The position numbers were made by a program, and so were the translations under genes. Positions 5,486 to 58,385 of a stretch of DNA of 64,000 bases are shown here, one piece after another. The notes under the pieces were generated by a model. That model saw nothing but the letters and a program-made list of their open reading frames with translations, was not told the origin of the DNA and did no database searches. The number at the start of each line of letters is the position of its first letter. Position 1 is the stretch's first letter. The stretch is from Minisyncoccota bacterium (lineage in GTDB: Bacteria > Patescibacteriota > Minisyncoccia > Phycocordibacterales > UBA2100): positions 9 to 64,008 of the forward strand of contig DATDWX010000033.1 of NCBI GenBank assembly GCA_036517335.1, read 5' to 3'.

Positions 5486-7525
5486 ATGGCAGACAAAAAA
5501 AAGAAGAAGGCGGGTTCATACAACGCCGCGGACATCACCGTCCTCGAGGGATTGGAGGCGGTACGGAGGAGGCCGGGGATGTACATCGGCACGACCGACA
5601 CGTCGGGCTTGCATCATCTTGTCTGGGAAGTATTCGACAATTCGCGCGACGAGGCGATGGGTGGTTTTGCAAACGACATCGAAGTGGCGCTCCTTCCCGA
5701 CGGCTCGGTGCGCGTCGCCGACAATGGTCGCGGCATTCCAGTAGACGTCCATTCGAAAACAAAAGTCTCCGCGCTCGAAACGGTAATGACAAAATTGCAC
5801 GCCGGTGGCAAATTCGGTGGTGAAGGCTACAAGGTATCCGGCGGCTTGCACGGCGTGGGTGTCTCGGTCGTCAATGCGCTTTCGGATGCGGTGCGTGCGG
5901 AAGTGCATCGTGATGGCGGCGCATACGTGCAGGAATATAAAAATGGTGGCACGCCCGTGAGTAAGATCAAAAGAATGGGCTCGTCGGATCTGCACGGCAC
6001 CATCATCCGCTTTCGCCCCGATTCTTCGGTCTTTCCGGAACGCACATTCAATTGGGAGACGATCGTGGCACATATGCGCCAGCAAGCGTACCTCGTGCGC
6101 GGTTTGAGGATCTCTATCCTCGATCTGCGGCAGGTGCCCAAAGTCGACGTAGAGGACGCGTTCTATGTTCGTGAGCTGGGCATCGAAGCTCCCTCGGTGA
6201 GCTTTTATTTCGAGGGTGGTCTCCGCAGTCTCGTGGCGTTCCAGAATCGTCATCAGGAGCCCATCCACAAAACTATTTTTTACGTGGAGAAGGAAGAAGA
6301 CAACGTGCAGGTGGAGATAGCACTGCAGTATGTAGACGACATCAACGCGCGTCTTTCCGCTTTTGCAAATAATATCTACACTGCCGAAGGCGGTATGCAT
6401 GTGACCGGTTTCAAGGGCGCTCTCACCCGTTCGCTGAACGCACAAATAAAGAACGGTGGTGGCAAGGAGAGCGAGAGTTTTACCGGCGACGACTGCCTGG
6501 AGGGGATGACGGCGGTCATTTCGGTAAAGCTGCGTGAGATCCAATTTGAGGGACAAACGAAAGCCAAGCTCGGCTCGGTAGAGGCGCGCGCCGCGACGGA
6601 GGCGGTGTTTGGGGAAGCATTCAGCGCTTTTCTCGAAGAGCATCCTGACGAAGCCCGGGCAATCATCGCGAAAGTAAGCTTGGCCATGAAGGCGCGCAAG
6701 GCAGCCAAGGCCGCTAAGGATTCGATCCTGCGCAAAGGCGCCCTAGACGGCATGACACTGCCGGGCAAACTTGCCGACTGCCAAACGAAATCAGCAGAGG
6801 AATCCGAGCTGTTTATCGTCGAGGGGGATTCCGCCGGTGGCACTGCCAAAGCAGGTCGCGATCGCCGTACACAGGCGATATTGCCGCTGCGCGGAAAGAT
6901 CCTCAACATCGAGCGGGCGCGACTCGACAAAATGCTCGCCTCCGAGCAGATACGAAATCTTGTGGTCGCTCTCGGGACAGCGATAGGGGATATTTTTGAC
7001 ATTTCCAAATTGCGGTATCACAAGATCATTATCGCCACCGATGCCGACGTGGACGGCGCGCACATCCGCACGCTGCTCCTTACGCTTTTATTCCGACACT
7101 TCCGTCCGGTCATTGACGGCGGCTTTCTCTACATTGCGCAGCCGCCGCTCTACAAGATCAGAAAGGGGAAGGAAGTCGCGTATGCATACAGCGAGGCCGA
7201 AAAGGTTGGCATTGCGGGGAAAGATACCCCGATTGAAGAAGAAACATCGGGGCAAGGGGAGCCAGAGATTCAAGAGGCGACGCCTCTTGAATCTGGGAAA
7301 CGAACTCCAAAAATTTCGGTACAACGCTACAAAGGTCTGGGTGAGATGAATGCCGAGGAATTGTGGGAGACAACGATGGATCCGGCCAAACGCGTGCTTA
7401 TGCAAGTCACCATCCTCGATGCCCAAGAGGCCGACCAGGTCTTCGATATGCTCATGGGCACCGACGTCCCAGCCCGCAAGTCATTCATCCAGTCTCACGC
7501 GCGCGAAGCGACGCTGGATATTTAG
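5486..7525 (+). CDS. gyrB: DNA gyrase subunit B
   Basis: MADKKKK..YNAADITVLEGLEAVRRRPGMYIG, the GHKL ATPase, a TOPRIM (EGDSAGG) and QRYKGLGEM. Confidence 0.95.
   Translation: MADKKKKKAGSYNAADITVLEGLEAVRRRPGMYIGTTDTSGLHHLVWEVFDNSRDEAMGGFANDIEVALLPDGSVRVADNGRGIPVDVHSKTKVSALETVMTKLHAGGKFGGEGYKVSGGLHGVGVSVVNALSDAVRAEVHRDGGAYVQEYKNGGTPVSKIKRMGSSDLHGTIIRFRPDSSVFPERTFNWETIVAHMRQQAYLVRGLRISILDLRQVPKVDVEDAFYVRELGIEAPSVSFYFEGGLRSLVAFQNRHQEPIHKTIFYVEKEEDNVQVEIALQYVDDINARLSAFANNIYTAEGGMHVTGFKGALTRSLNAQIKNGGGKESESFTGDDCLEGMTAVISVKLREIQFEGQTKAKLGSVEARAATEAVFGEAFSAFLEEHPDEARAIIAKVSLAMKARKAAKAAKDSILRKGALDGMTLPGKLADCQTKSAEESELFIVEGDSAGGTAKAGRDRRTQAILPLRGKILNIERARLDKMLASEQIRNLVVALGTAIGDIFDISKLRYHKIIIATDADVDGAHIRTLLLTLLFRHFRPVIDGGFLYIAQPPLYKIRKGKEVAYAYSEAEKVGIAGKDTPIEEETSGQGEPEIQEATPLESGKRTPKISVQRYKGLGEMNAEELWETTMDPAKRVLMQVTILDAQEADQVFDMLMGTDVPARKSFIQSHAREATLDI
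7267..7293. repeat. 27-bp perfect palindrome GATTCAAGAGGCGACGCCTCTTGAATC lying in frame in gyrB (encodes IQEATPLES)
   Basis: Exact palindrome. It sits in the variable loop before QRYKGLGEM, which is about 25 aa longer than in the B. subtilis GyrB. Confidence 0.8.
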
Positions 7526-8592: not shown

Positions 8593-8616
8593 ATGATCGT
8601 TGGGCGGGGCACTGGG

Positions 8617-8646
8617 TTGACAAGTACCCTTATATCATGGTAATAT
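8617..8646 (+). promoter_or_regulatory. Sigma70-type promoter (TTGACA-18-TAATAT) upstream of the sortase gene
   Basis: Hexamers read directly. The ATG is 13 nt downstream of the -10 box. Confidence 0.45.
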
Positions 8647-8658
8647 CCCACTGTCAAT

Positions 8659-9645: not shown

Positions 9646-9654
9646 AGATGAAGT

Positions 9655-10746
9655 TTATTTAAATCTTTTGGTCTTCAAGGCTCCACCAAATAGGAAGAGT
9701 GCAAATGCAGCCCACATGCCCGTGCCTTTTGCCGCCACCCGTTGCCTCATCGTTTCTTGGTACTCTTCTTCGAAGTGCGCTCGTTCAAGATCTTTATCGT
9801 ACTCACTCATACGACCCCAGTTTCGGATAGTCATCTTGTGATTTTGCCAGTCAGCATCCATCTGTGTCTCCGTTGGCAGAATGGTGTAAAGGTCTTTAAG
9901 CGGCATCTGGGGAGCACGTTCTGGATTTTTACCGACGATCTCAAGCATGAGAGCACGTCGAACCTCCAAATTTTCCTCCAACATCAATCCCATCAAGTTA
10001 CCCACCCCTTCAGTTCTTCGCTGTATCTCCGTTTTTGCCGTTTGGATATCTCCTCCAAGAGCCTGAAATTCTTTGAAAGTTTTTTCGCTGGTGAAAAGTC
10101 CACGCCAGAACCCAAGTTGAGAATTAATTTCAGCCCGCAACTCTTGAGTGCGTGTGTGTGGATTGGGGTCATTGAGAATGCGGACAATCGTGCTTGTATC
10201 TGGCTCTATGTGACGCTGCTTACAAATCTTTTCAAACTCTCCTTTTAATCGCGCCGATTCAGTTGCTTGCCACGCCGCTAGAGCATTTTGATCTGTTCGC
10301 ATCTCCTCAAACCTTACTGGATCGCTAATCGCTAGTTCCGACAATTGCTTCTGAATAAACGCCGTCATTTGCTTCGCGCCCCGGACCTTGATCGCATTTT
10401 GTAGCTCGGGGGAGGAGGTCGCGAGATCATCAATATTCCCCTCTGTTACCGTTTCGGCTATCTCCTTGGCGTGTGCCACCTGTTCGCCGTAAATCTCTTG
10501 TGCTCGGGCCAATTTTGCTATGTCTCCAGGTGCGACTGTTTCTGGTTGTGCCAGCAAATCAATAATGACACCAGGATCCAATCCTTCTGCACGCAAGAGG
10601 TCTCCCTGCTCAAGCATTTTAGTGAACCGCGTTTGATCTTCCGGCTTGTTTAGTATGTCAGAGAACTTCGGCTGCTCTGGTCCTGCTGGAGCCGCGGCTG
10701 CGGCGACTTCTTTATCGTGTTTGATCGACTCCTCCAAAATATCCAT
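9655..10746 (-). CDS. Hypothetical tail-anchored alpha-helical protein
   Basis: 363-aa ORF with a C-terminal TM (MWAAFALFLFGGAL) followed by KTKRFK. Confidence 0.45.
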   Translation of the reverse strand: MDILEESIKHDKEVAAAAAPAGPEQPKFSDILNKPEDQTRFTKMLEQGDLLRAEGLDPGVIIDLLAQPETVAPGDIAKLARAQEIYGEQVAHAKEIAETVTEGNIDDLATSSPELQNAIKVRGAKQMTAFIQKQLSELAISDPVRFEEMRTDQNALAAWQATESARLKGEFEKICKQRHIEPDTSTIVRILNDPNPHTRTQELRAEINSQLGFWRGLFTSEKTFKEFQALGGDIQTAKTEIQRRTEGVGNLMGLMLEENLEVRRALMLEIVGKNPERAPQMPLKDLYTILPTETQMDADWQNHKMTIRNWGRMSEYDKDLERAHFEEEYQETMRQRVAAKGTGMWAAFALFLFGGALKTKRFK

Positions 10747-10821
10747 TACAAAACTGTATCATGCACTTAACAATGGAACCAACGAGTATTGTGGGCGAGG
10801 GGTGAAAGGTGAGATTTGAGC

Positions 10822-10849: not shown

Positions 10850-10925
10850 CCCAACTAGTCTGGCGGGAGACCGTCCTGGCCAGTCGAAACCGGCTCTGCG
10901 GAGTCATAACACGGAGAAGAAGACG

Positions 10926-11180
10926 ATGAAGACGACGATGACGGCCGCCCTGGCGCTTGTCGCGTTGTGCGGTTTGGCCTCCTCGGCGGAGGCACGCTGG
11001 GTGTGCCAGCAGTGGCATCATCGGACCTGCGTAAGGGCAGTGTGGGTGCAACCGCCCCCGCAGGCGCAAACCGTCTACGGGCCGACGACGAGGTCCGCAC
11101 CCACGAGCACGTACCAGGCGTGCTGGGTCAACGGGGTCCGACGTACGGACATCCCCGAGAGTCAGTGCCGCGCGCACTAA
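10926..11180 (+). CDS. Small secreted cysteine- and tryptophan-containing peptide (84-aa precursor, about 61-aa mature, 4 Cys)
   Basis: Signal peptide MKTTMTAALALVALCGLASSAEA. High-GC codon usage. Strong promoter and RBS. Confidence 0.5.
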   Translation: MKTTMTAALALVALCGLASSAEARWVCQQWHHRTCVRAVWVQPPPQAQTVYGPTTRSAPTSTYQACWVNGVRRTDIPESQCRAH

Positions 11181-18453: not shown

Positions 18454-21400
18454 TTACAGTGCTTTCGCTCGCTCTACGACAAAGCTGGGCTCGCCGTTTC
18501 TTTCAGAAATTCTGCCTTTCAGCATGACGCAGGTGCCGGGGGCGAGGAGGGCTTCGTGTTCTTTTAAGATGCGGGGAAACGCGACGGCTTCGATGCCACC
18601 GGAGAGGTCGGCGAGTTTGAGGAAGAGCATACGCTCGCCGTTTTTCGTTAGGATATACTGCACGCTTTCGATGAATCCGGCGATGACCGTCTCGACGCCG
18701 CGCAGATTTTCTTTGGCATGCTGGATGGTTGTTTTCTGATTCGCCAATTTTTCTTTGTGCTTATCGAGCGGGTGACCGGAAATATAGAGGCCGAGCAATT
18801 CCTTTTCCCACACCAACCGTTGATCCATCGTCGCCGGAGGTGCGGGCGGCAACTTCAGCGCCGCAGGCGCTGAAGTTGCCGCTCCGAACAAAGAACCCTG
18901 ATCGGTCGGCGCCTTCATGTGTTCGCGATGATAGGTGAGGAGCAGTTCAACGTTGGCAAAAAGCGCTCCGCGCTCTCCCAGATCATCTAATGCACCACAT
19001 TGGATCAGCGCCTCAAGGGACTTCTTGTTCAAGTTCTTATCGGGGATACGGGAGATAAAGTCGGCAATATCTTTGAACGCGCCGCCCGACTCTCTGGCGG
19101 CAATGATCGAATCCCCCACTCCTGTGCCGAAATTTTTGATGGAGTAAAGACCAAAGCGGATATTCGTCTGATCTACCACAGTAAACACGCCACCACTCTC
19201 ATTGACTGAAGGCGGCCACACGTGGATACCCATTCGTTTGCATTCCGCGACCGCTTCAGCGATTTTTTCCACGTCGCCGGCGTCAGCTGTTAGCACCGCA
19301 GCCATATAGTCCACAGGGAAGTTGGCCTTCATGTACGCCGTTTTGTACGCGAGCGAGCCGTAAGAAGCCGCATGGGCTTTGTTGAATCCGTATGCAGCGA
19401 ATGTCTCTATTTGCTCCCATAATTTTTTTGCTGCATCTGGCTTCATGCCGTTATGTATACAGCCAGTAGTAAAACGCTCTTTCTGTGCCGCCATTTCTTT
19501 CGGCACTTTCTTTCCCATTGCTTTGCGGAATTTGTCGGCCTCGCCCCATGAGTACCCTGCGAGCTGCACAGCTATCATCATCACGTCGTCCTGATAAATG
19601 AGGACGCCATACGTAGGCTTCAAGATTTCCTCCAGACGCGGATCGAGATAGCGCACGCGTGCTGGATTTTTCTTGCGCTCAATGTATTCAGGGATGAAGG
19701 CCATGGGGCCTGGCCGGTAGAGAGCGACCATCGCATTCAAGTCATGGATGACGGTCGGCTTTAGCTCTTTGAGATACGACGTCATACCGCCACCCGCCAT
19801 TTGAAAGACGCCGAGGGTTTCGCCGCGGGTGAGCATCTCGTACACTTTCCCATCGTCGAGCGGAATGCGATCGAGATCCACTTCTTGCCCGAGCCGCGCG
19901 CTCACGCGCGCGACGGAGTCGGCGAGGACCGACAGGTTGGTGAGTCCGAGGAAGTCGAATTTGAGAAGGCCCACGCCGCCATATTCGTCGGCGATAGAGT
20001 ACATGTCGTACTGGGTGATCATTTTGCCACCTTTCGGGTCCATTTGGATCGGCGAGTAGTTGACCACAGGCTCCGGCGCGAGGATCACACCCGCCGCGTG
20101 CACACCGACATGCCGCGCGTTGCCCTCTATCTTTTGCGCAAAGTCAATAATTTCTCGCGCGTCGGGATCATTCTCATACACTTGTTTGAGTTCTGGCACG
20201 CTCTCTAGTGATCCCGCAATAGAGACAGGGAAGCCCTGCTTGCCGAAGGGGATCATTTTGGCCAGAGAATCGCCCTTGCCGTAGGAGTGCCCGAGTGCTC
20301 GCGAGACATCCCGCACTGCAGCGCGCGCCATCATCGTGCCGAACGTGCCGATCTGTACCACTTTGTTCTCGCCGTACTTTTCTCGCGCGTACTCTATTAG
20401 TTCGTCGCGGCGAAAGGCGTCGATATCCATGTCGATATCCGGCGCGCTCGGCCTCTCGGGATTGAGGAAGCGCTCGAAGGGCATGTTGAACTCGAGGGGA
20501 TTGACGCTCGTGATGCCGCAGAGATAGGAGACCAAGGAGCCAGCTGCGGAGCCGCGCGTATTAGTGAAAATGCCTCTCCCCCGTGCCCACGCGAGGAGAT
20601 CAGCGACGATGAGGAAGTACGATGCGTAGCCCTTTTGCCTGATAATGTCGAGTTCATAATTGACCCGCGCCCACATCTCGTGCGATTCCGTGAGTTCGCG
20701 CTCTTTGATGCCGCGCTCAGTGAGCACTCGCAGCTCATGATCGTCCGTGGACCCTGGGGGAATGGGGAAGTTGGGAAAAATGACCTTGCCCAGCGTGAGC
20801 TTGAGGTCGCAGAGATCGGTGATTTTTTGTGCATTTTCGAGCGCCTCGGGCGTGTCGGCGAAAAGTTCAGCAGCGCGTTCGCTTGTAATGAATGAAAAAT
20901 CCGGGCCACTGCCCGCCGATTCACGATCAAGCGTACCCCCCGTGCGTATCTTGATGACGAGCTCGCGCGCGGCCGCGTCCTCTTTCTGCATATAGTAAAC
21001 GTCGTGCGCCGCCACCAATTCGACAAGCTCATGGCGAGCTAGTGTGACAATACGGCGCATCTTTTCCTCGTGTCCTTCGACTTCCGGGTGGTGGGTGATT
21101 TCGATGAAATATTTTTCTCCATACAATTTTTTGTACCACGCCAGGATTTCTTTCGCACGTTCGACATTCCCGTCCGCCAAAGCGCGGGCATGCTCACCCG
21201 AAAAGCTGGGCAGTATCGCAATCAATCCATCGCGGTGTTGCTCCATCAATTCCCTATCAATGCGCGGGCGATAATAAAATCCTTCGAGATACGATTTTGA
21301 TACGAGCTGGAGAAGATTGTGATACCCCGCCTCATTCGCCGCGAGCAACACAAGCCGCGAGTGTCTATCGTCCACCCGGTGCTCTTTATCGCGCCGCGTG

Positions 21401-21722: not shown

Positions 21723-22337
21723 ATGGAACAGATGAAATACCTCATCGGCATCGACGAGGCGGGGCGGGGGCCTTTGGCTGGGCCGGTTGCCGTGGGGGCG
21801 GTTGTTGTTCCTCGGAATTTTGATTGGAAGCTCGTCGCTGGTGCCAAGGATTCCAAGCAGATGACCCCGGCGGGGCGGGAGAGCTTGTACTCCACGATGA
21901 GCGAATTGCGCAAGGAGGGAAAACTCGATTTTGTCGTTGCATTTTCCTACCCAGCCATGATTGATCGGCAGGGCATTGTTCCGGCGATCCAAAGCGCCCT
22001 CAACCGAGCCCTGAGCAAAATTCAAGAGGCGTCGCCTCTTGAATGCGAGGTGCGGCTCGACGGGAATCTCAAGGCTCCCTCCGAGTTCGTTCATCAAACC
22101 ACTATCATCCGCGGCGACGAGTCGGAGTCTGTCATTTCCCTAGCCTCGATCGCTGCCAAGGTGGAGCGTGATCTCCTGATGGCGCGGCTTGCTACGAAGT
22201 ATCCGGCGTACAGATTTGAAAAACACAAGGGGTACGGCACCGCAGAGCACAGGCGGAACATCCGGGAGTTTGGGCTCTGCAAAATTCACCGGGCCACATT
22301 TTGCACACGTTTGCTTCTTGGCTCAAATGCAGTATAA
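21723..22337 (+). CDS. rnhB: Ribonuclease HII
   Basis: IGIDEAGRGPLAGPV, DSKQ, the LDGN..., KGY motifs. Confidence 0.85.
   Translation: MEQMKYLIGIDEAGRGPLAGPVAVGAVVVPRNFDWKLVAGAKDSKQMTPAGRESLYSTMSELRKEGKLDFVVAFSYPAMIDRQGIVPAIQSALNRALSKIQEASPLECEVRLDGNLKAPSEFVHQTTIIRGDESESVISLASIAAKVERDLLMARLATKYPAYRFEKHKGYGTAEHRRNIREFGLCKIHRATFCTRLLLGSNAV
22020..22044. repeat. 25-bp perfect palindrome ATTCAAGAGGCGTCGCCTCTTGAAT in frame in rnhB (encodes KIQEASPLE)
   Basis: Exact palindrome. Same family and same coding phase as the gyrB and tsaD copies. Confidence 0.8.
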
Positions 22338-27616: not shown

Positions 27617-27991
27617 ATGGAACAAGATCAGACATTTCTGGAATACGTGGTCAAAGCGCTGGTAGACAACCCGGTGGATGTGAAGATCGTGCGCACGCTC
27701 GACGAGATGGGAGTCTTGCTCACACTCACGGTGCACAAAGATGACATGGGCAAGGTCATCGGCCGCTCGGGTGCCACCGCCAAGGCCATCCGCACCATCC
27801 TGCGCGTGGTGGGTATGAAGCACGATGCGCGTGTAAATCTCAAGATAGAAGAGCCGGAAGGCAGCGAGCCCCGTGAGGCTCGTAGTATGACCGGCGAGCG
27901 CACGAGCACCGTCACTATGGAAAGGCCACCACGCGCTGCCTCGCGCGATCGCTCGGTGGACGATGTCATTGATGAGTTGAAGACAGATTGA
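27617..27991 (+). CDS. KH-domain RNA-binding protein (YlqC/UPF0109-like) with a C-terminal extension
   Basis: VKIVRTLDEMGVLLTLTVHKDDMGKVIGRSGATAKAIRTIL. Conserved position between rpsP and trmD. Confidence 0.7.
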   Translation: MEQDQTFLEYVVKALVDNPVDVKIVRTLDEMGVLLTLTVHKDDMGKVIGRSGATAKAIRTILRVVGMKHDARVNLKIEEPEGSEPREARSMTGERTSTVTMERPPRAASRDRSVDDVIDELKTD

Positions 27992-28665
27992 TGTTGCATT
28001 TTCACGTCATTACTCTCTTTCCTGAATCAATCGAGCCATACCTGAAAAGCTCGATCATCGGCCGCGCGCAGCAAGCGAAGAAAATTAAGATTTCTTATTA
28101 CGATCCGAAGAAGTTCACTCGCGACAAATACGGCAGGGTAGATCGCCGCCCGTATGGAGGAGGGCCGGGGATGGTGTTGGAAGCTGATGCAATGCTCCGC
28201 GCGGTTGATGCCGCTCTCAAAAAAGGTAAAAAGCCGCAAGGCGACACCTTGCTGGTTTTCTTCTCGACTGACGGGAAACAGTTTGATGAAGCGATGGCAA
28301 AGAAAATGGCAGGAAATTCGAGAGGTGTCGCCTCTCGGAAACACATCGTACTGATCTGCGGGCATTATGAGGGGGTGGATGCGCGAGTGCAGAAAATACT
28401 CAGGGCGAAGAAAGTTTCCGTGGGACCGTATGTGCTCACGGGTGGAGAATTACCGGCGGCAACGGTGATAGACGCCGTAGCCCGCTTCGTACCGGGCGTA
28501 CTCGGAAAGAGCGAATCCCTCGAAGCCTCTCGAGTCTCCAGCCCGGAGGTCTACACGCGCCCGGAAATCTTGGTATGGAAAAAGAAAAAGTATCGCGTAC
28601 CAAAAGTTCTCCTCACTGGCCATCATGCGAAGATCGAAGAGTGGAAAAAGAAACGACGGAAATAG
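27988..28665 (+). CDS. trmD: tRNA (guanine37-N1)-methyltransferase
   Basis: HFHVITLFPE...YGGGPGMVL...ICGHYEGVDARV. Confidence 0.9.
   Translation: MMLHFHVITLFPESIEPYLKSSIIGRAQQAKKIKISYYDPKKFTRDKYGRVDRRPYGGGPGMVLEADAMLRAVDAALKKGKKPQGDTLLVFFSTDGKQFDEAMAKKMAGNSRGVASRKHIVLICGHYEGVDARVQKILRAKKVSVGPYVLTGGELPAATVIDAVARFVPGVLGKSESLEASRVSSPEVYTRPEILVWKKKKYRVPKVLLTGHHAKIEEWKKKRRK
28317..28340. repeat. 24-bp palindrome TTCGAGAGGTGTCGCCTCTCGGAA in frame in trmD (encodes NSRGVASRK, about an 8-aa insertion relative to the E. coli TrmD)
   Basis: Inverted repeat with 7-9 bp arms. A divergent member of the TTCAAGAGGCG family, in a different coding phase. Confidence 0.6.
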
Positions 28666-28713
28666 TTCGATATGACAGCATAACTCGCACCTGCGTATAA
28701 AAGTGTCATATCG

Positions 28714-28763
28714 GCATCATGCGAAGATCGAGGAGTGGAAGAAAAAGAAACGCTCGAAATAAA
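28714..28763 (+). repeat. Near-identical duplicate of the trmD 3' end (HHAKIEEWKKK...*), 50 bp downstream of the real stop
   Basis: 28618-28665 versus 28714-28763. The intervening 48 bp carry a 9-bp terminal inverted repeat (gatatgaca/tgtcatatc). Confidence 0.6.
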
Positions 28764-28783: not shown

Positions 28784-28814
28784 GCGAAACGAAGAGGTTG
28801 CTTCTTCGTTTCGC
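28784..28814 (+). terminator. Hairpin (gcgaaacgaaga ggttgc tcttcgtttcgc), a possible terminator lacking a U-tract
   Basis: 12-bp perfect stem downstream of the trmD duplicate. Confidence 0.35.
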
Positions 28815-36642: not shown

Positions 36643-36673
36643 AATATTAGTGGTTTACGAAACCACTAATATT
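36643..36673. repeat. REP-like 31-bp palindrome AATATTAGTGGTTTACGAAACCACTAATATT overlapping the RAYT1 stop codon
   Basis: 14-bp perfect arms. Copy 1 of 3 of this family. Confidence 0.75.
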
Positions 36674-37328
36674 CCAGGCGGTACTCCTTGAGAGAGCTTG
36701 CTTGGTTGGATCGCAAGAATGACGAGATTTCTTTTTTGTAGTCCTTAAAGACGTCGGAGAAGAGTTCGGTTGTCAGAATTGATGGAAAATTGTGTGTCCC
36801 CGTGTAGTCGAGGTAGCTGCTCCACTTATATTTTTCAAGAGTTTGCAATGCAGCTGTAGCACTCTGCAAACCATGTTGCCGCCATTCCTTGCCGCCGCGA
36901 GAAAAGTCGAGTGGATTACTATGAATGTAATTGAGAATGTGCAAAAAATGTGCGTCGGTATGGATGTGAACCTTCTTGCTGCGTCCCTGAAAAAGCGTGC
37001 CTTGCCGTTTATATCGCTCGTTAAAGTAATTGGCATATCCCACGTTCAGGCGACGAATAAACTTTGTAAGGCCGCCGTCTATCCGTTCAGATATGAGAAG
37101 GTGATAGTGATTTCCCATAAGACACCATGCATGCAGATCAACGATCCGCTCCTTTGCCATATAGTGGTTTCGTAAACCACTAATATCAGACGCGCGATGC
37201 CAAACATTTTTTGCGTCTTCAACGTCATTGAATTCCCACATGTCGTGTACGAACCGGGCCCTGTCCTTGTCATCAAGGAATAATGATCGCTTATCAACGC
37301 CGCGATTCAAAACGTGGTACAGCTCCAT
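36666..37328 (-). CDS. REP-associated tyrosine transposase (RAYT) / IS200-like HUH-Y1 transposase, copy 1
   Basis: HUH motif (AWCLMGNHYHLLI) and a Y1 motif (LNYIHSNPL; compare YIYINPV in E. coli RayT). 220 aa, flanked by REP-like palindromes. Confidence 0.8.
   Translation of the reverse strand: MELYHVLNRGVDKRSLFLDDKDRARFVHDMWEFNDVEDAKNVWHRASDISGLRNHYMAKERIVDLHAWCLMGNHYHLLISERIDGGLTKFIRRLNVGYANYFNERYKRQGTLFQGRSKKVHIHTDAHFLHILNYIHSNPLDFSRGGKEWRQHGLQSATAALQTLEKYKWSSYLDYTGTHNFPSILTTELFSDVFKDYKKEISSFLRSNQASSLKEYRLEY
37159..37186. repeat. REP-like palindrome (ATATAGTGGTTTCGTAAACCACTAATAT) inside the RAYT1 coding sequence (encodes DISGLRNHY)
   Basis: Same arms as the flanking copies with a complementary centre. 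Confidence 0.7.
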
Positions 37329-37337: not shown

Positions 37338-37369
37338 ATATATTAGTGGTTTACGAAACCCCTAATATT
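37338..37369. repeat. REP-like palindrome ATATATTAGTGGTTTACGAAACCCCTAATATT immediately upstream of the RAYT1 start
   Basis: One mismatch relative to copy 1. Confidence 0.7.
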
Positions 37370-37518: not shown

Positions 37519-39300
37519 ATGTCAGATACTGTGCAGCAAATTAAGGATAGGTTGTCTATTACGGATGTGGTCAGCCAGTACGTGAAATTGGAACGAGCGG
37601 GCTCGACACTCCGCGCCCGTTGCCCTTTCCACGCCGAGAAAACACCCTCCTTTTTCGTCTCGCCCGAACGCGGCACCTACCACTGCTTCGGTTGCAATGT
37701 GGGCGGCGACATATTCTCGTTCGTCGAGCAGATCGAGGGACTGGATTTTAAAGGGGCGCTGAAGATTCTTGCAGAAAAAGCCGGCGTGGAGATCGTGTAC
37801 CGGGGCAAGGGTGAGTCTCGGGAGGGCAGGGATGAACGCGACCGATTATTTGCGCTTATGGAAACGGCCGCGATCTTTTATGCGTCGCGCTTGAGCGACG
37901 GGGCGCGGAGTTATTTACAGGGACGCGGCGTCGAAGACGCCACCGTACACGCTTTTCGTATTGGCTGGGCAGGCAATGAGTGGAGCGAGGCGTCGGATTA
38001 TCTGAAAGGCAAAAGGTTTACCGACAAAGAAATGATTGACGCCGGTATTGCAAAGAAAAACGAACGTGGCAACCTGACCGACAAATTCCGCAACCGCATC
38101 ATGTTTCCTATTGCGGATTCAGCCGGGCGCGTGGTGGCTTTTTCTGGTAGAATTTTTGGTGAGCACGCCTCTCCCGAGGCACCCAAATATTTGAATAGCC
38201 CCGAGACGCAGCTGTATCACAAATCCCGGATACTCTACGCATTCGACCGCGCCAAAATGGCTATCCGCAAGGCTGCTTGCGCGGTCTTGGTGGAAGGACA
38301 GATGGATCTCATTATGAGTCACCAAGCAGGATGGACCAACACCGTTGCCGTTTCGGGTACCGCCTTCACGCAGGAGCACGCAGCGCTTATTCGGCGGATG
38401 ACGGATAATCTCGTGCTTGCCCTCGACGCTGATCAGGCGGGTATAAAAGCAGCGGGTCGCGCTGCCCGGGTGGCCCTGCAGGGCGGACTCAATGTGAAAG
38501 TAGCCCAGTTGCCCGAGAATATGGACCCCGCCGACCTCATCGCGAAGCGCGGCATTGATGCGTGGAAAACAGCAATTCGTGAGGCTAAAGACATCATCAC
38601 CTTTTTGCTTGATGTGCTCGAGAAGCACCTGCCTGCGCAGGCAGGTGCCCAGCACAGCGACCGATTTCGCCGTGCGGTGGAGACGGTCGTACTGCCGTTT
38701 GTGGTGGATGTGGGAAGCCCGATTGCGCGTGAGCAGTATATGCGGCAAATCGCAGGGCGCCTCGGCGTCTCGGAGAGCGCAGTCGCAGAGGCGCTGAAGC
38801 GCGTGCCGACCGAGTCTCTCACGACAGGCACCAAGGGAATGGTGGCACCGCCTGAAAGTGGGACAACCACACTGAAGGGTCTCGATAGGGTACAGCCCTC
38901 CTTCGCCAAAGGTTTCGAGAGGACGCGGCATGGATATGCCTTGCTCCTTCTGCAAACTTCGATGCCAAAACCGGACATTGATATTGTGCAATACGCGCGA
39001 GAGCTTGAGGTCGCAATAGGCAAAGAGGCATTCAAAGCTCTCGAAGCCTTGAGCGAATCCGAAAAGGAAGTCCTTCGTTTTTCTGCCGAACGCTTGTACA
39101 GTGCGAGCAAGAATGTAGTGCGTGACGCCCATGAGCTCGTGAAGATCCTCCACGAGGAACGATTGCGGCGCGAACTTGCCGAAGTGGTCAAACTGCAGCA
39201 AAAGGCCGAACGCGCAGGTGGCAAGGCCGAACTGGCCACGCTGGAGAAGCGATCGAAGGTGTTGATAGCCAAGATTGCACAATTGCACGGAAAGGGATAG
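37519..39300 (+). CDS. dnaG: DNA primase
   Basis: Zn-ribbon CPFHAEKTPSF...CFGC and a TOPRIM (VEGQMD, DADQAG). Confidence 0.9.
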   Translation: MSDTVQQIKDRLSITDVVSQYVKLERAGSTLRARCPFHAEKTPSFFVSPERGTYHCFGCNVGGDIFSFVEQIEGLDFKGALKILAEKAGVEIVYRGKGESREGRDERDRLFALMETAAIFYASRLSDGARSYLQGRGVEDATVHAFRIGWAGNEWSEASDYLKGKRFTDKEMIDAGIAKKNERGNLTDKFRNRIMFPIADSAGRVVAFSGRIFGEHASPEAPKYLNSPETQLYHKSRILYAFDRAKMAIRKAACAVLVEGQMDLIMSHQAGWTNTVAVSGTAFTQEHAALIRRMTDNLVLALDADQAGIKAAGRAARVALQGGLNVKVAQLPENMDPADLIAKRGIDAWKTAIREAKDIITFLLDVLEKHLPAQAGAQHSDRFRRAVETVVLPFVVDVGSPIAREQYMRQIAGRLGVSESAVAEALKRVPTESLTTGTKGMVAPPESGTTTLKGLDRVQPSFAKGFERTRHGYALLLLQTSMPKPDIDIVQYARELEVAIGKEAFKALEALSESEKEVLRFSAERLYSASKNVVRDAHELVKILHEERLRRELAEVVKLQQKAERAGGKAELATLEKRSKVLIAKIAQLHGKG

Positions 39301-43074: not shown

Positions 43075-43250
43075 GACTTCCTCCCAAAATGCGATTCGAG
43101 GAACAGGCCGACCGGAATCCTACACCCCGCCGCGGGCTTGTCCAAATACTTATGGTATTTGTTAATTCCCTTCTCCGCCAAGGCTACGAAAGGGCACGGC
43201 AAACGAATAAGCAAATACAGTTCATCAAAAACGAAGCGGCCGGTTCCTTT
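43075..43250 (-). promoter_or_regulatory. Conserved roughly 150-nt 5' leader (copy 1 of 2) upstream of the 42616-43074 gene
   Basis: Shares blocks (gtatttgcttatt..tgccg.gccctttc.tagcc..gcggagaa.ggaattaacaaatacca...tatttggac...ggtgtaggatt.cgg) with 43717-43995. Confidence 0.5.
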
Positions 43251-43716: not shown

Positions 43717-43995
43717 GAGGTTCCTCCTGAGAAGAGCGGACGTTCTCCAGCCGGAGCTATTCCGCCGCAATCCTACACCACGCCTCGAGTTTGCCAAGCC
43801 CCCGTAGCTCCGCCGGAGGCTGATGGTACCGGGGTCCAAATATTATTTTGGTATTTGTTAATTCCTTTCTCCGCCCGGGCTATGAAAGGGCGCGGCAATC
43901 AAATAAGCAAATACGGTTGGTCCAAAATCGGATTTTCAATTCTCTAATTCGCGCGAATAAGCGAATAGTTTGAAATGTCCAAAAATGAAGCGGTC
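43717..43995 (-). promoter_or_regulatory. Conserved 5' leader (copy 2) upstream of paralogue A, with a roughly 70-nt insertion relative to copy 1
   Basis: Blockwise similarity to 43075-43250 seen in the sequence. Confidence 0.5.
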
Positions 43996-46183: not shown

Positions 46184-47038
46184 ATGGCGAGGAAAAAAAC
46201 GGCATTGCCCATAACCCACTGGAGCTACTCCTCGTTAATGTCTTATTTGCGCAATCCTTTGGCTTGGTACAAGCGCTACGTAGAGCACGTGTACGACACG
46301 CCTTCGTCGCCCGCGGGTATCATTGGCCGGGCGGGGCATGTGGCCTTGCAACATTTCTACAGCGGGATAGCGAAGGAGGGCGCGATTGATCTAGGATTGG
46401 AATATTTGCGCAGCGTGCCGGACTTTGAGATCAATTTTGGCAAGCTAAAGTCCCTGCCTGCCGGCAGGCAGGGTGCCGCGCAAAGGAGAAAGCGCCAGCT
46501 GATGGGACGCGAATACCTGCAGGCGGTCGCTTTCTACTTGGAGAAGCCGCCACGCTACGATGTCTTGGGCGTGGAGGTCAGGGCCGACGCACTAGTACAA
46601 GGATTGCCCCTGCCGATACGTGCGGTATCCGATCTCGTCGTGCGGTCAAAGGGGGAGCGGGATGCGCTTGATGTCGTAGATCACAAATTTGTGGATTCTT
46701 TCAGCGCGCTCGGCGCTGGCAAGACGCTCTTCGTCATCCAAGCCATCTTCAACTACTACACCGTCTCACAGATGTACGATAGACCTGTACGCCGCTTCAT
46801 TCTGCAGGAGTGCAAAAAAAGAAAAAACGCCGACGGCTCACCCCAAATGCGCAAATATGTAATCAACTTCGACGAACGAGCCGAAGATTTCGCCCTCTTC
46901 CACCGTTTAATCAAGGAAACAACGGCCGATCTCGCAAAGCGACAACACTTCCTCCCCAATCCATCTGATATGTTCGAAGGCGAGAATTCCTTTGATATTT
47001 ATCGGCTTGGATTGACTGGTAAAAATCACACGTTATAA
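46184..47038 (+). CDS. PD-(D/E)XK nuclease superfamily protein (RecB/Cas4-like N-terminus, no Cys cluster)
   Basis: N-terminal HWSYSSLMSYLRNPLAWYKRYV and a D...D-x-K-like motif (ALDVVDHKF). Confidence 0.5.
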   Translation: MARKKTALPITHWSYSSLMSYLRNPLAWYKRYVEHVYDTPSSPAGIIGRAGHVALQHFYSGIAKEGAIDLGLEYLRSVPDFEINFGKLKSLPAGRQGAAQRRKRQLMGREYLQAVAFYLEKPPRYDVLGVEVRADALVQGLPLPIRAVSDLVVRSKGERDALDVVDHKFVDSFSALGAGKTLFVIQAIFNYYTVSQMYDRPVRRFILQECKKRKNADGSPQMRKYVINFDERAEDFALFHRLIKETTADLAKRQHFLPNPSDMFEGENSFDIYRLGLTGKNHTL

Positions 47039-51616: not shown

Positions 51617-51673
51617 CAGGTCACACCACTTCCTCCCCAACCCGTCAGATATGTTCGAAGGAGAGAACAGTTT
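51617..51673 (+). repeat. Synonymously recoded duplicate of the PD-(D/E)XK nuclease 3' end (HFLPNPSDMFEGENSFDI*)
   Basis: Same peptide as 46946-46999 with synonymous substitutions (tcc to agt Ser, ttt to ttc, gat to gac, and others). Lies 4.6 kb downstream, after the giant gene and immediately before REP-B/RAYT2. Confidence 0.7.
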
Positions 51674-51707
51674 CGACATTTAACGTCTTGGGTTATTGGA
51701 AAAATAA

Positions 51708-51744
51708 TGAAAGACATCGGATGTTGGACATCCGATGTCTTTCA
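51708..51744. repeat. REP-like palindrome TGAAAGACATCGGATG-ttgga-CATCCGATGTCTTTCA upstream of RAYT2
   Basis: 16-bp perfect arms. Shares the GACATCCGATGTC core with 52426-52452. Confidence 0.7.
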
Positions 51745-51759
51745 TGGTATCATTGGGGT

Positions 51760-52422
51760 ATGGATCTGTACCACATTTGCAATCGGGGTGTCGATAAGCG
51801 AGAGGTGTTTCTTGATGATGGCGATCGCACACGATTCGTTCATGACCTGTATGTAATGAACGATGTGCATTCGGTGCCGAATCACGGCCGTCATGAGCTA
51901 GGCAACATATCAGATGCAGGACACGAACGAGAGCCACTTGTTCATTTGTACGCATGGTGTCTCATGCCCAACCATTACCACCTACTCCTGTCCCCGGTCG
52001 ACGATGAGCCCGCGAATCTGTCTTTGTTTGCGCAGAAAGTGGGCATGGGCTACTCGAAGTTTTTCAATAAAAAATACAAACGATCCGGTGCCCTTTGGCA
52101 GGGGAAACATAAAAAGGTGCATATACAACGAGACGCTCATTTCCTCTATATTCCGTTCTATATCCATCTTAATCCTCTCGACCTATCGATTCCGGAATGG
52201 CGTCACGGGCGGGTGAAGGATGTGGACAAGGCCTTGGAACAACTAAGCGGCTATCGCTGGAGCAGTTTTCTCGACTATACTGGAGTAAAAAATTTCCCGT
52301 CCCTTATCGACAAACCTCTGCTTACAGATATGCTCGGTTCGCGCAAGAAACAAAGCAAGATAATAGCGGATATCATCGGCGACGGAATATTGGCAAATTC
52401 CAGCTGGGCATTAGAGATGTAG
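51760..52422 (+). CDS. REP-associated tyrosine transposase (RAYT) / IS200-like HUH-Y1 transposase, copy 2
   Basis: AWCLMPNHYHLLL (HUH) and FYIHLNPLD (Y1). 220 aa, a paralogue of 36666-37328. Confidence 0.8.
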   Translation: MDLYHICNRGVDKREVFLDDGDRTRFVHDLYVMNDVHSVPNHGRHELGNISDAGHEREPLVHLYAWCLMPNHYHLLLSPVDDEPANLSLFAQKVGMGYSKFFNKKYKRSGALWQGKHKKVHIQRDAHFLYIPFYIHLNPLDLSIPEWRHGRVKDVDKALEQLSGYRWSSFLDYTGVKNFPSLIDKPLLTDMLGSRKKQSKIIADIIGDGILANSSWALEM

Positions 52423-52425
52423 AAC

Positions 52426-52452
52426 AATGAGGGACATCCGATGTCCTTCATT
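52426..52452. repeat. REP-like palindrome AATGAGGGACATCCGATGTCCTTCATT immediately downstream of RAYT2
   Basis: 13-bp arms with one mismatch. Confidence 0.65.
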
Positions 52453-52464
52453 GGTAAAGGATTG

Positions 52465-53296: not shown

Positions 53297-53327
53297 ATAT
53301 TCGTTTCCATTATACACTAGCTACACA

Positions 53328-54017: not shown

Positions 54018-54024
54018 TTCCGAA

Positions 54025-57078: not shown

Positions 57079-57182
57079 CGTCCGTCTCCTCTCCTGTCTC
57101 CCGAATTCGTGGGTCTCGGAACATCCTACACCTTCATGATTGAGATCAAAAGGTCGCATTTATCATTAATTGCTCACCGCGC

Positions 57183-58385
57183 TTACACGTTTGCCAGCCT
57201 TAAATTCCCACTGGCGCGAAGAGATGCCGGATCGGCGAATTCTTTTTTGAGAGCGTGGAAATAGCCGGCTAGCGCGATCATGAGGGCGTTGTCGGTGGCC
57301 CATTCGGGTGCGGGGATGAGGAGTTGGACATCCTGTTCATCGAGTGCTTCTTTGAGCCGTTGTTTGATATGCGTGTTGGCCGAGACGCCGCCGCCAACTA
57401 AGACCGTTTGTGCGCCATGTTCCTCCACGGCTCGCAGGGTTTTCGCGACGAGCACGTCGGCGGCGGCGTCTTCAAATTCGCGCGCGATTTCTATTTTCTT
57501 TGCATACGTGAGCGTTCGACCGCCGATCACATTGCGCACTGCTGTTTTCAATCCCGAGAATGAAAAGTCGTAAGATTCATCCTTCATCATCGGCCGCGGC
57601 AATTCAAGAGGCGACACCTCTTGAATCTGACGCGAGCGAGAGGCAAGCCGTGCGATCTCCGGCCCGCCAGGATAGGGAAGTCCCATCATCCGCGCAATTT
57701 TATCAAACGCTTCGCCCACCGCATCGTCGCGCGTCTCACCAATCGTTTTAAACTTTGGCCATTCAGTAATCAAATCCAATTCCGTGTGCCCACCCGAGAT
57801 GAGTAGCGCAATGGCGGGGAATCCGGACTCGTCGATTCTTAATCCCGATACTTCGTTATATAACGAAGTATCGGGATTTGAGACTATCGCCATGGCAATA
57901 TGACCCTCCAGGTGGTTCACAGGTACGATCGGAATATTCCATACTGCGCTCAGCGCTTTTGCAAAATTTACCCCGACCCACAGCGCGGGCTCAAGGCCGG
58001 GGCCGTGCGTCACCGCGATCGCATCAATATCAGGCCTCCCATGTGTTTTTAAAAATTCTTCGAGCGCCTGAAAAAGTTCCGGTTCTCGCACCAGCAATTC
58101 CCGGATGTTCAAGGACCGTCCTTGAACCAATTGGATCAAGGACGGTCCTTGAACAGCTTGAGCGGACTGTGCGAGTACTTCACTTAGAAGCGGGACGAGA
58201 TTTTTTGCATGCTCGCGCTTGGCGAGATTGGGAAAGATGCCGCCGTAGGGGGCATGAGTCGCGATTTGTGAGTGGAGTGCGTTGCCCAGCACTTGAAATT
58301 TGAACGATGCGCCAAATGATCCTTCGGCCTCGATCAAACAAACAGCGGTTTCATCGCACGAGGTCTCTATCCCTAAAATCTTCAT
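57183..58385 (-). CDS. tsaD: tRNA N6-adenosine threonylcarbamoyltransferase TsaD (400 aa, about 55 aa longer than typical)
   Basis: MKILGIETSCDETAV, HLEGHI, GGVSAN. Carries two in-frame palindromic insertions. Confidence 0.85.
   Translation of the reverse strand: MKILGIETSCDETAVCLIEAEGSFGASFKFQVLGNALHSQIATHAPYGGIFPNLAKREHAKNLVPLLSEVLAQSAQAVQGPSLIQLVQGRSLNIRELLVREPELFQALEEFLKTHGRPDIDAIAVTHGPGLEPALWVGVNFAKALSAVWNIPIVPVNHLEGHIAMAIVSNPDTSLYNEVSGLRIDESGFPAIALLISGGHTELDLITEWPKFKTIGETRDDAVGEAFDKIARMMGLPYPGGPEIARLASRSRQIQEVSPLELPRPMMKDESYDFSFSGLKTAVRNVIGGRTLTYAKKIEIAREFEDAAADVLVAKTLRAVEEHGAQTVLVGGGVSANTHIKQRLKEALDEQDVQLLIPAPEWATDNALMIALAGYFHALKKEFADPASLRASGNLRLANV
57602..57626. repeat. Palindrome ATTCAAGAGGCGACACCTCTTGAAT in frame in tsaD (encodes QIQEVSPLE on the minus strand)
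   Basis: 10-bp arms. Same family and phase as the gyrB and rnhB copies. Confidence 0.75.
58107..58154. repeat. 48-bp compound palindrome GTTCAAGGACCGTCCTTGAAC-CAATTG-GATCAAGGACGGTCCTTGAAC in frame in tsaD
   Basis: Two 21-bp palindromes in inverted orientation around CAATTG. Encodes VQGPSLIQLVQGRSLNI. Confidence 0.75.

Follow-up and report, generated by a model that had tools for sequence, protein, structure and literature searches.

A family of short palindromes in housekeeping genes of a CPR bacterium and its probable association with a RAYT-like transposase lineage

Palindromes in the genes of the window and in related contigs

The window (the whole 64-kb stretch of DNA that was analysed) includes gyrB (5486..7525, plus strand), which has Pfam DNA_gyraseB, Toprim, HATPase_c and DNA_gyraseB_C domains, and the Pfam-supported genes rnhB (21723..22337, plus strand; HEY4517110.1), trmD (27991..28665, plus strand) and tsaD (57183..58385, minus strand; HEY4517141.1). 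The consensus ATTCAAGAGGCG-N-CGCCTCTTGAAT, here called REP-A, is present in gyrB, rnhB and tsaD, and the peptide that it encodes is IQE[AV][TS]PLE in all three. The pattern TTCAAGAGGCG-N-CGCCTCTTGAA, which has a 1-nt centre, matches the window at 7269-7291 and 22021-22043 with no mismatch and at 57603-57625 with one, against 0 matches expected from 100 shuffles; the version with a 3-nt spacer has no match in the window; the centre is one nucleotide. The matches at all three sites bear out an earlier note on this DNA, which described near-identical perfect palindromes in these genes, except that perfection is limited to two of the three close copies. The gyrB copy (7266..7294; no strand is assigned to this or the following palindromes) is a 29-bp perfect palindrome, AGATTCAAGAGGCGACGCCTCTTGAATCT, with 14-bp arms, read in frame as E-IQEATPLE-S, and the rnhB copy (22020..22044) is a 25-bp perfect palindrome with 12-bp arms, read in frame as IQEASPLE, whereas the tsaD copy (57602..57626), read in frame on the minus strand as IQEVSPLE, has one C.A / G.T position. 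The centre of the latter, GGCG-A-CACC, is the asymmetric centre usual for the REP-A family, and it reads ..EATP.. one way and ..EVSP.. the other; the expectation that both orientations would be tolerated is upheld. REP-A elements thus measure 25-29 bp with arms of 11-14 bp, as the short stem-loops of REPs do, and the copies fold as single-stranded DNA hairpins with energies of -9.4 to -12.8 kcal/mol, the z-scores being roughly -7 to -8. Identical DNA (100%) is present in five independent assemblies, and the copies in the window are therefore not an assembly artefact. An Rfam search of the whole window matched no family.

The trmD gene contains a divergent variant, REP-A2 (28317..28339; TTCGAGAGGTG-T-CGCCTCTCGGA), with nine Watson-Crick pairs and two G.T pairs, in which CGG replaces the TGA of the standard element with pairing preserved. 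It is read in frame 3 as NSRGVASRK, so the constant codon phase that had been claimed holds for the gyrB, rnhB and tsaD copies, all of which start at codon position 2, but not for trmD. A variant of the trmD type makes up, in the identical frame, the C-terminus of RAYT-A, a RAYT-like protein of contig L028 (see below). Within genes, the standard element has been found in frame 1 only (IQE[AV][TS]PLE). Frame 3, which contains TGA, occurs either where the element ends a protein and provides its stop, or internally where paired substitutions have removed the stop, and frame 2 (FKRRRLLN) is absent among the copies found. An ORF of L014 reads REP-A DNA in a frame other than frame 1. In AlphaFold models the TsaD copy is predicted to be the coil after helix 240-253 and the RnhB copy the loop between helix 86-98 and the LDG-motif strand, in agreement with the loop placement for which a mapping onto structures had been proposed.

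Palindromes with arms of at least 9 bp number 14 in the window, against 1.7 in shuffles. A G-type palindrome in trmD (28229..28259; AAAAGCCGCAAGGCGACACCTTGCTGGTTTT) has the AGGCGACACCT centre of REP-A and other arms, and tsaD carries two further palindromes at 57841-57878 and 58106-58155. A-type and G-type palindromes, whose arms differ, lie 85-110 bp apart in three loci; that they form one composite element was rejected, as the spacers are unequal in length and not alignable.

The additional copies that the earlier note anticipated exist, at no fewer than ten further independent sites in related contigs. Frame-1 copies lie in purD, rsmH, a gene for an M16 peptidase and a gyrB orthologue, and outside coding sequence copies were located in the rplU-recR interval, downstream of ftsA and of a phosphatase gene, and upstream of RAYT-A/alaS. 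These non-coding copies occupy the 3' ends of genes, whose stop codons can come from the element itself or from its flanking sequence, and one of them is the entire 25-bp gap between two convergent genes. Eight related copies are found in 85 kb (part of the genome only), of which the 64-kb window holds five and L028, over 20.7 kb, the other three; six of these are in host genes (four REP-A proper, the G-type palindrome in trmD and the M16 variant), one is in the last codons of the RAYT gene and one is intergenic. The tally of copies is a lower bound, since the metagenome scan missed the three copies of the window itself and is for that reason unusable for counts. Matches in L008, L009 and L015 were set aside, as were the only two matches of a one-genome-per-species scan, one to a Clostridia MAG and one to an alphaproteobacterial MAG. 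That scan produced no match to the source genome, and by our estimate about two matches are expected by chance. The long ORFs that seem to contain the L012/L016 copy, ahead of the alaS start, and the window palindrome at 51707, ahead of the start of the second transposase gene, are read-through of non-coding DNA, and neither palindrome is counted as coding.

RAYT-like genes and their flanking palindromes

The window carries genes for two RAYT-like Y1 transposases. The first (36666..37328, minus strand; HEY4517123.1) is accompanied by a REP family of its own, ATATTAGTGGTTTACGAAACCACTAATAT, with members at 36643-36673 and 37340-37368 and another, in frame, inside the gene at 37162-37182, and the second (51760..52422, plus strand; HEY4517136.1, VJG64_04290) has its own palindromes, GACATCGGATGT..ACATCCGATGTC, at 51707-51745 and 52425-52453. 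With a window RAYT as query, tblastn found paralogues at window positions 51760-52353, in L012/L028 and in L022. All four RAYT-like proteins have HUH (HYH/HFH) and YIHxNP motifs, and their best and only NCBIfam match is REP_Tyr_transpos, with scores of 24-40 bits against a cut-off of 80; the Pfam Y1_Tnp scores are 19-33 bits against a cut-off of 23, three of the four proteins being under threshold. Scores under the family cut-offs indicate that these proteins are distant relatives.

The RAYT-A gene (10001-10711 of L028) has ATTCAAGAGGCGACGCCTCTTGAAT 18 bp upstream of its ATG and AATCCGAGAGGAGTCGCCTCTCGGATT within its last codons. Its orthologues in L031, L032 and L033 (71%, 63% and 57% identity) have AATCCAAGAGGTGTCACCTCTTGGATT, AATCCTAGAGGCGACGCCTCTAGGATT and AACTAGGAGGCGTCGCCTCCTAGTT, respectively, on both flanks; these palindromes keep the REP-A core, and their outer arms co-vary by genome in the three other genomes. 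All four RAYT-A orthologues examined (L028, L031, L032 and L033) are thus flanked on both sides by their lineage's own version of the palindrome. The other three RAYT paralogues are flanked by palindrome families of their own. Within the genome, every RAYT paralogue has hairpin-forming palindromes of 21-39 bp on its flanks, with a separate family for each. Because RAYT-A and its orthologues are flanked by co-varying palindromes of the same core, we consider it likely that the palindromes in the housekeeping genes are the REP family of one RAYT-like HUH/Y1 lineage in Kaiserbacteria/Paceibacterota (CPR). The RAYT-A contig and the window very probably belong to one genome, a Candidatus Paceibacterota MAG, judging from the accessions (HEY4517110, 7123, 7136 (VJG64_04290) and 7141 in the window, HEY4516322-24 on the RAYT-A contig), the same samples and the similar GC content. 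The earlier note had set the family apart from the two REP families that flank the RAYT genes of the window; a separation from REP/RAYT systems altogether is not supported, as REP-A appears to belong, as its REP family, to a third RAYT-like gene, which is carried by a different contig but very probably by the same genome.

Conservation of the palindromes and other possible origins

The intragenic copies are ancient, vertically inherited and maintained as palindromes in DNA, being common to orthologues that are 64-85% identical and lying there at the same codon; a recent origin is contradicted by this sharing. Where amino acids are identical, the codon is also the same in 102 of 110 pairwise cases within the element, compared with a fraction of 0.48-0.53 over the remainder of the genes, and in four independent orthologue pairs 28/28 codons are the same inside the element against about 50% elsewhere. 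Double changes are found in 9 of 13 stem pairs; cells with a change on both sides number 44, where shuffles give 11.7 (0/500). The orthologous gyrB copy of L018 has a compensatory change, and rnhB has orthologous copies in L024, L025, L027, L034 and L035; at this single rnhB site the arms are TTCAAGAGG, TCCGAGAGG or TCCCAAAGG according to lineage, each of them palindromic, and the peptide varies (IQEATPLE, IREATPLG, IPKASPLG) while the palindrome stays. In TsaD different REP families occupy the same loops across lineages.

These observations bear on the likeness to the in-frame coding palindromes of Rickettsia (RPE type) that had been pointed out, a comparison that is apt. If the copies were neutral selfish passengers of that kind, that is, recent in-frame insertions of ~24-27 bp in surface loops whose DNA is thereafter unconstrained, each should lengthen its host protein, and two of them may have done so. 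Measured against H. influenzae TrmD, the trmD copy adds seven residues, which coincide exactly with SRGVASR, and the GyrB element sits in a linker that is about 24 aa longer than that of S. aureus GyrB; the earlier claims of about eight and about 25 aa are upheld. Other palindrome families nearby show clean presence/absence insertions, a 30-bp palindrome family being present in rsmH of L023 and absent from L019, and the 38-bp tsaD palindrome being absent in P0010, P0024, P0031 and P0064. However, simple cut-or-copy-and-paste predicts a gain of 8-9 aa, and four of six sites gain 0-3 aa only: compared with close relatives, the eight element codons leave the length of tsaD unchanged (0 aa); compared with the clade outgroup, rnhB gains 1 aa; and the net change lies between -1 and +3 aa in rsmH and is +2/3 aa in purD. 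"Inserted" is thus only partly right, fitting the trmD copy better than those in tsaD, rnhB, rsmH and purD. Since the shared codons, the frozen synonymous sites and the compensating paired arm substitutions also speak against unconstrained DNA, passengers of this type are very unlikely in general, and for the rnhB, gyrB, purD and rsmH copies the idea is largely refuted.

The small length changes would suit a site that evolved in place, through point mutations wherever the host protein can bear them, and is recognised as a duplex by some other dimeric protein, for instance a chromosome-organisation factor (parS/matS/NBS type), or a DNA-uptake signal, the adjacency to RAYT genes then being incidental. 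The perfect dyad with its odd centre, the conserved orthologous positions and the frozen synonymous sites are in accord with this, as is the fact that in rnhB and rsmH the element is in register with native [IVL]-x-E-A-x-P residues; in RnhB relatives without the element, the orthologous site is the best match to the element peptide in 37 of 113 and among the top three in 61. The TsaD loop of relatives, on the other hand, is without such similarity (0/36), so that the notion of an element always landing on a similar native peptide, true for RnhB and (by eye) RsmH, is not general. Incidental adjacency fits poorly with four of four RAYT-A orthologues and the other three paralogues each being flanked by their own families, and the G.T-tolerant position and the covariation of the arms suit a hairpin. 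Known sites of the parS/matS/NBS type are far shorter than 25-29 bp with 11-14 bp arms, and REP-A, with roughly one copy in 10-20 kb, is not dense enough to be an uptake signal. The Neisseria DUS and Pasteurellaceae USS do resemble REP-A as DNA motifs within genes that have preferred frames and tolerant positions and leave length unchanged, but uptake sequences have 9-12 bp cores with about one occurrence per kb, are not palindromic in their own right and are not known to be linked to a transposase. We therefore regard a duplex-binding or uptake site as very improbable.

Local de novo creation of palindromes by template switching (quasi-palindrome correction) at unrelated sites would alter sequence without altering length, and the coding DNA of the window has unique long perfect palindromes, such as that in dnaE (18844-18884), of which an orthologue has the same peptide in non-palindromic DNA with only +1 aa difference. 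Such a process cannot, however, yield the same 25-mer with centre GGCG-A-CACC at ten or more unrelated coding and non-coding loci, nor put it on either side of a transposase gene; this multi-locus identity refutes template switching as the source of the family, a role in which it is hardly credible, but it may help keep the arms perfect once a copy exists. Finally, protein-level selection of a conserved peptide IQEAxPLE with the palindrome as a by-product, for which the same peptide in six proteins and the similar native residues of RnhB and RsmH might be cited, is refuted and has virtually no probability, given the frozen synonymous positions, the non-coding copies, the other frame used in trmD, RAYT-A and the L014 ORF, and the changing peptide but constant palindrome at the rnhB site; the earlier proposal of a DNA element lying in frame in unrelated housekeeping genes, rather than a conserved protein motif, is thereby supported.

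Relation to known REP systems and possible maintenance of the hairpins

Most of the REP/RAYT systems on record come from Proteobacteria, and they are regarded as extragenic. Like the E. coli REP-BIME with TnpA-REP and the Pseudomonas REPINs, the REP-A system consists of 20-40 bp hairpin-forming palindromes that recur within the 85 kb of the genome covered, with each family tied to a single-copy Y1/HUH gene flanked by that family's palindromes, with several RAYT-REP pairs per genome, and with extragenic copies at gene 3' ends and between convergent genes. It differs in its distant and longer transposases (220-236 aa), in its CPR host, in a modest apparent copy number and in that most copies found are intragenic, the mainly extragenic location of REPs being the reverse of what is seen in the 85 kb, where six of eight related copies are within host genes. 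No inverted doublets at a fixed distance, of the REPIN type, were found, all REP-A copies being single units, and the A-type/G-type pairs at three loci are not REPIN-like, with unconserved spacers and different arms. An end tetranucleotide GTAG (or CGTC) belongs to the definition of REPs given in PMC3733652; an alignment of 25 REP-A copies, AAATTCAAGAGG..., has neither tag at either end.

The Rickettsia palindromic elements are likewise in-frame palindromic repeats in housekeeping genes of a small genome, tolerated in surface regions; compared by size and description, REP-A differs in being 25 bp long, encoding 8 aa and having a cognate RAYT-like gene. An RPE-1 element has a length of roughly 100-150 bp and contributes 30-50 aa, and the Rickettsia RPE-4/6 are CGTC REPs. 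According to the passages of PMC3733652 that concern them, CGTC REPs have no known dedicated transposase. In IS200/IS605 elements, too, an HUH/Y1 enzyme gene is flanked by hairpins, and by analogy the chemistry presumably acts on single-stranded hairpins; those elements are, however, multi-copy gene-bearing units with differing left and right ends, whereas the REP-A system has a single-copy gene per family and the dispersed unit is the bare hairpin.

Intragenic REPs as such have been described (Di Nocera 2013). The relevant passages of PMC3733652 report many of them in replication and repair genes, with REP ends giving stop codons, and those of Opitutus terrae, Thioalkalivibrio and others resemble REP-A in lying in frame in dnaE, uvrA and other replication/repair and tRNA-modification genes; they differ in being insertions, often dimers encoding 20-30 aa, and a minority of their family. 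These same passages make no mention of orthologous conservation, synonymous freezing, arm co-variation or near-zero length change, and relative to the REPs described there, what is new here appears to be the mostly intragenic location and the exact DNA kept across species. A literature search of limited reach found no paper combining RAYT or REPIN with CPR or Patescibacteria.

If REP-A is the REP family of the RAYT-A lineage, the enzyme would, by analogy with characterised RAYTs and IS200/IS605 TnpA, recognise the hairpin in single-stranded DNA, and this recognition would be what dispersed the copies. They lie at gene 3' ends or in permissive loops within genes, and the maintenance of the intragenic ones would be due either to selection on the hairpin or to RAYT-dependent homogenisation or replacement of resident hairpins. 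Hairpin replacement would also account for what is seen at most sites, where the element takes the place of loop codons and does not simply lengthen the loop. We tentatively raise the possibility that the intragenic hairpins are maintained features which the RAYT system or selection corrects or replaces in place, in concert with transposase specificity; such in-place replacement would account for the rnhB arm variants, the frozen synonymous sites, the substitution of codons and the different REP families in the TsaD loops. If true, this would be a REP-for-hairpin replacement, a homing-like mode undescribed for RAYTs, in a genome almost without intergenic space.

A CPR bacterium with at least three RAYT-REP pairs, one family of which has its found copies mostly inside essential genes, offers a natural system in which to ask whether REP hairpins are kept by selection or by the transposase itself, as the coding context provides in its synonymous sites a built-in neutral expectation that intergenic REPs do not have. 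The copies also mean that lineage-specific loop segments arise in GyrB, TsaD, RnhB, TrmD and RsmH, universal markers that are used in CPR phylogeny and structure prediction. We note that the host is an ultra-small groundwater bacterium of the CPR, and that the coding fraction of its genome is about 92%.

REP-A copies in the window and in related contigs

The 23-mer TTCAAGAGGCG-N-CGCCTCTTGAA, which has a one-base centre, occurs exactly at 7269–7291 and 22021–22043 in the window and with one mismatch at 57603–57625, where none are expected from 100 shuffles; the same pattern with a 3-nt centre has no match in the window. The full palindromes of this REP-A family lie at 7266–7294 (14-bp arms), 22020–22044 (12-bp arms) and 57602–57626, in genes assigned by Pfam as gyrB, rnhB and tsaD, and they encode the peptides IQEATPLE, IQEASPLE and IQEVSPLE, respectively. 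The earlier note held that codon phase is always the same; this is true of these three copies, all of which start at codon position 2, and not of the REP-A variant in trmD (28317–28339), which is in another frame and gives NSRGVASRK. The rnhB-bearing stretch (~11.7–32.3 kb) is 100% identical across five independent assemblies (ENA, JGI and Logan). In all, the window has 14 perfect palindromes whose arms reach 9 bp or more (1.7 in shuffles), and Rfam gave no family match across its whole length.

A scan of one genome per species returned only two matches, about the estimated chance expectation for that pattern, and a metagenome scan found 16 loci. Thirteen of these are from two groundwater metagenomes, with contig prefixes Ga0209542 and C687J35174; one of the two (JGI 3300002502) also contains a contig that is the same, base for base, as a stretch of the window. 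Additional in-frame copies are present in purD (loci L010 and L021), rsmH (L013, L019 and L023), an M16 peptidase gene (L012) and a gyrB orthologue (L018), all in the IQE/TQE..PLE frame. Non-coding copies lie upstream of alaS, directly 3' of ftsA, 8 bp downstream of a phosphatase gene, and between convergent rplU and recR, where the palindrome is the entire 25-bp gap and is overlapped by the rplU TAA. In L014 a 112-aa ORF ends ...NSRGVAS-TGA, using the element's third frame and the element's own TGA as its stop. Most copies have in common the asymmetry GGCG-A-CACC (GGTG-T-CGCC on the opposite strand), so they are copies of a single master sequence, and the two orientations of this asymmetric centre account for the peptides ..EATP.. 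and ..EVSP...

At three unrelated loci an A-type (REP-A) palindrome lies 85–110 bp from a G-type palindrome (AAAACCNGCAAGGCGACRCCTTGCNGGTTTT), which has different arms and the common centre AGGCGACACCT: 28229–28259 with 28317–28339 in the window, 10050–10076 with 10162–10196 in L011, and 11009–11033 with 11115–11147 in L022. The spacer sequence is not conserved between them. We note that the L022 G-type palindrome has A/T runs on either side, resembling a bidirectional terminator.

The nearest TsaD and RnhB sequences belong to groundwater CPR bacteria, Candidatus Kaiserbacteria / Paceibacterota, and window proteins are deposited at NCBI as HEY4517110, HEY4517123, HEY4517136 (VJG64_04290) and HEY4517141 of a Candidatus Paceibacterota MAG. 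Gene number 858 of the genome falls in the window, and the called genes of contig L001 cover 92% of its DNA.

RAYT-like genes bordered by palindromes

The window's RAYT1 gene (36666–37328) has paralogues at 51760–52353 (within RAYT2), in L012/L028 (RAYT-A) and in L022. All four proteins match NCBIfam REP_Tyr_transpos and Pfam Y1_Tnp weakly and carry the HUH and YIHxNP motifs, and each gene is bordered by its own palindrome family: ATATTAGTGGTTTACGAAACCACTAATAT at RAYT1, GACATCGGATGT..ACATCCGATGTC at RAYT2 and AGGACTCCCCTCTTACA at the L022 gene. At RAYT-A the 5' palindrome, 18 bp before the ATG, is ATTCAAGAGGCGACGCCTCTTGAAT, and the last codons contain AATCCGAGAGGAGTCGCCTCTCGGATT (..LNPRGVASRID), the same variant and frame as in trmD. 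RAYT-A orthologues from other samples (71%, 63% and 57% identity) have palindromes on both flanks (TCCAAGAGG, TCCTAGAGG and ACTAGGAGG), in which the REP-A core is kept and the outer arms are altered yet complementary; in L033 the gene's stop codon is the element's TAG. REP-A or an arm variant of it thus flanks RAYT-A and each of these orthologues, which ties it to REP/RAYT systems, and we class the family as REP-like and RAYT-associated. The RAYT-A contig proteins (HEY4516322-24) are numbered ~815 accessions below those of the window, and both contigs come from the same samples, so the two are taken to be one genome.

Di Nocera et al. 2013 (PMC3733652) describe REPs within genes of several species, many of them replication/repair genes, and stop codons supplied by REP ends; the GTAG and CGTC tag definitions are also theirs. 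REP-A differs from the REPs so tagged in having neither tag; it is seen as single units and is part of a RAYT lineage of CPR that is only distantly related. Among the papers searched, none links RAYT or REPIN with CPR.

Several further features were seen around these genes. RAYT1 contains one of its own REPs in frame at 37162–37182 (TAGTGGTTTCGTAAACCACTA, peptide ..DISGLRNHY..). On either side of the RAYT-A cassette lies the alaS 5'-end in antisense (L028 ~9895–9955 and ~10725–10790; L012 ~1905–1960 and ~2750–2810), one copy with the real start MNINEIRTKYLEFFEK and the other a degenerate duplicate, MQTNEIRSKYLEFF, followed by a stop. A 72-nt direct repeat (46942–47013 and 51623–51694; 81% identity) is likewise a duplication of the 3' end of the PD-(D/E)XK gene, with the second copy directly before the first palindrome of RAYT2 and the gene itself, paralleling the alaS duplication.

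Insertion, replacement and constraint on the DNA

The elements had been described as inserted, and by net length change this is established for trmD only, where the protein is 7 aa longer than H. influenzae TrmD exactly over SRGVASR; at the other sites REP-A replaces loop codons. At the tsaD site the net gain is 4 aa over E. coli TsaD and 5 aa over a second PDB TsaD (chain 8iey_A), with no difference from close relatives that do not have the element (ARQ-SDVHSSEK-LPRPM vs SRQ-IQEVSPLE-LPRPM). RnhB gains 3 aa relative to Thermotoga and 1 aa relative to the majority type KL-EADPxECEV (60 of 121 aligned sequences), RsmH −1 to +3 aa relative to three solved orthologues, and PurD 2 or 3 aa relative to solved orthologues; the GyrB linker is ~24 aa longer than that of S. 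aureus. Aligned with the RsmH element, E. coli RsmH (3tka) has VAAATPVK and MraW chain 1m6y has VREALPSYE. Of 113 RnhB relatives without the element, 37 match IQEASPLE best at the orthologous site, and in 61 that site ranks among the top three; among TsaD relatives the corresponding site is never the best match to the element peptide (0/36). AlphaFold models place the TsaD copy in the coil following helix 240–253 and the RnhB copy in the loop preceding the LDG strand.

In rnhB orthologues from four other samples (~73% aa identity) ATT CAA GAG GCG ACA CCT CTT GAA is present at identical codons, and the flanking codons vary freely. Where amino acids are identical in rnhB, gyrB, purD and rsmH, the codon is also shared in 102 of 110 cases inside the element, compared with 48–53% outside; four independent pairs give 28/28 inside (binomial p ~4e-9 at 0.5). 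The same rnhB site has ATCCGAGAGGCGACACCTCTCGGAT (IREATPLG) in L034 and ATCCCAAAGGCCTCGCCTTTGGGGT (IPKASPLG) in L035, which differ by paired changes, and the palindrome is absent from the outgroup L036 (LEADPAE). Across 25 copies, pairing holds in 92% of cells, double changes occur at 9 of 13 stem pairs, and both sides are changed in 44 cells, compared with 11.7 in shuffles (0/500 reached the observed value). Pairing falls to 36–49% when the register is slid, indicating that the true register is specific, and computed folding gives stable hairpins for REP-A as single-stranded DNA.

Other palindromes and repeats

Other palindromes occupy the three variable TsaD loops, both here and in other lineages. 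One, a perfect 38-bp palindrome at 57841–57878 (AATCCCGATACTTCGTTATATAACGAAGTATCGGGATT, no spacer, peptide NPDTSLYNEVSGL), makes TsaD 14 aa longer there than in E. coli. TsaD relatives P0001–P0008 have it, P0048, which is more distant, has a similar form, and P0010, P0024, P0031 and P0064 lack it. Relatives have a different element in this loop (..SNILQN..), and by back-translation a perfect palindrome of 30 bp can encode its peptide HSNILQNVGM. A 50-bp palindrome at 58106–58155, two copies of GTTCAAGGACCGTCCTTGAAC, lies within a 43–47 aa segment (aa 75–118) that is absent from E. coli TsaD and has ..PRG[SL]TS.. in many relatives. KGFTKPL and RGLRNP are two frames of the REP1-like hairpin AAAGGGGTTTACGAAACCCCTTT, which is found in L017 and L022; these peptides lie in TsaD loops of P0004, P0011 (three sites), P0022 (two sites) and P0074. 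At the IQEVSPLE loop itself (alignment columns 325–375), P0006, P0009, P0016, P0018, P0019 and P0028 have 25–40 aa inserts of the type ..ADQTQIVADRNLRKSASNLR.., which probably encode yet another repeat family.

A 30-bp zero-spacer family, TCCGCCGGAGGCGGATCCGCCTCCGGCGGA, is found at L010 4233–4262, L017 2047–2076 and L023 1355–1384; it adds SARGGSASGG to the L023 rsmH and is absent from the L019 orthologue, a clean in-frame presence/absence. The dnaE gene has a near-perfect 41-bp palindrome at 18844–18884 (17–18 bp arms, peptide AATSAPAALKLPP), and its L026 orthologue encodes nearly the same peptide (ATSPSAVLKLPA), only 1 aa shorter, in non-palindromic DNA; either the L026 copy decayed or the window copy was palindromised in place. 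Zero-spacer palindromes in dnaG (38625–38648, GCACCTGCCTGCGCAGGCAGGTGC) and the PD-(D/E)XK nuclease gene (46452–46473, CCCTGCCTGCCGGCAGGCAGGG) have CCTGCCTGC/GCAGGCAGG in common and may be another small intragenic family.

The last ~50 bp of trmD (..HHAKIEEWKKKRRK; 28615–28664) are repeated 94 bp downstream at 28709–28761, followed by a further palindrome at 28784–28814. Tandem paralogous genes probably account for two repeats: a 300-nt direct repeat (62716–63015 and 63331–63630; 615 bp apart, 86% identity) and one of 82 nt (43150–43231 and 43846–43927; 696 bp apart, 85% identity).
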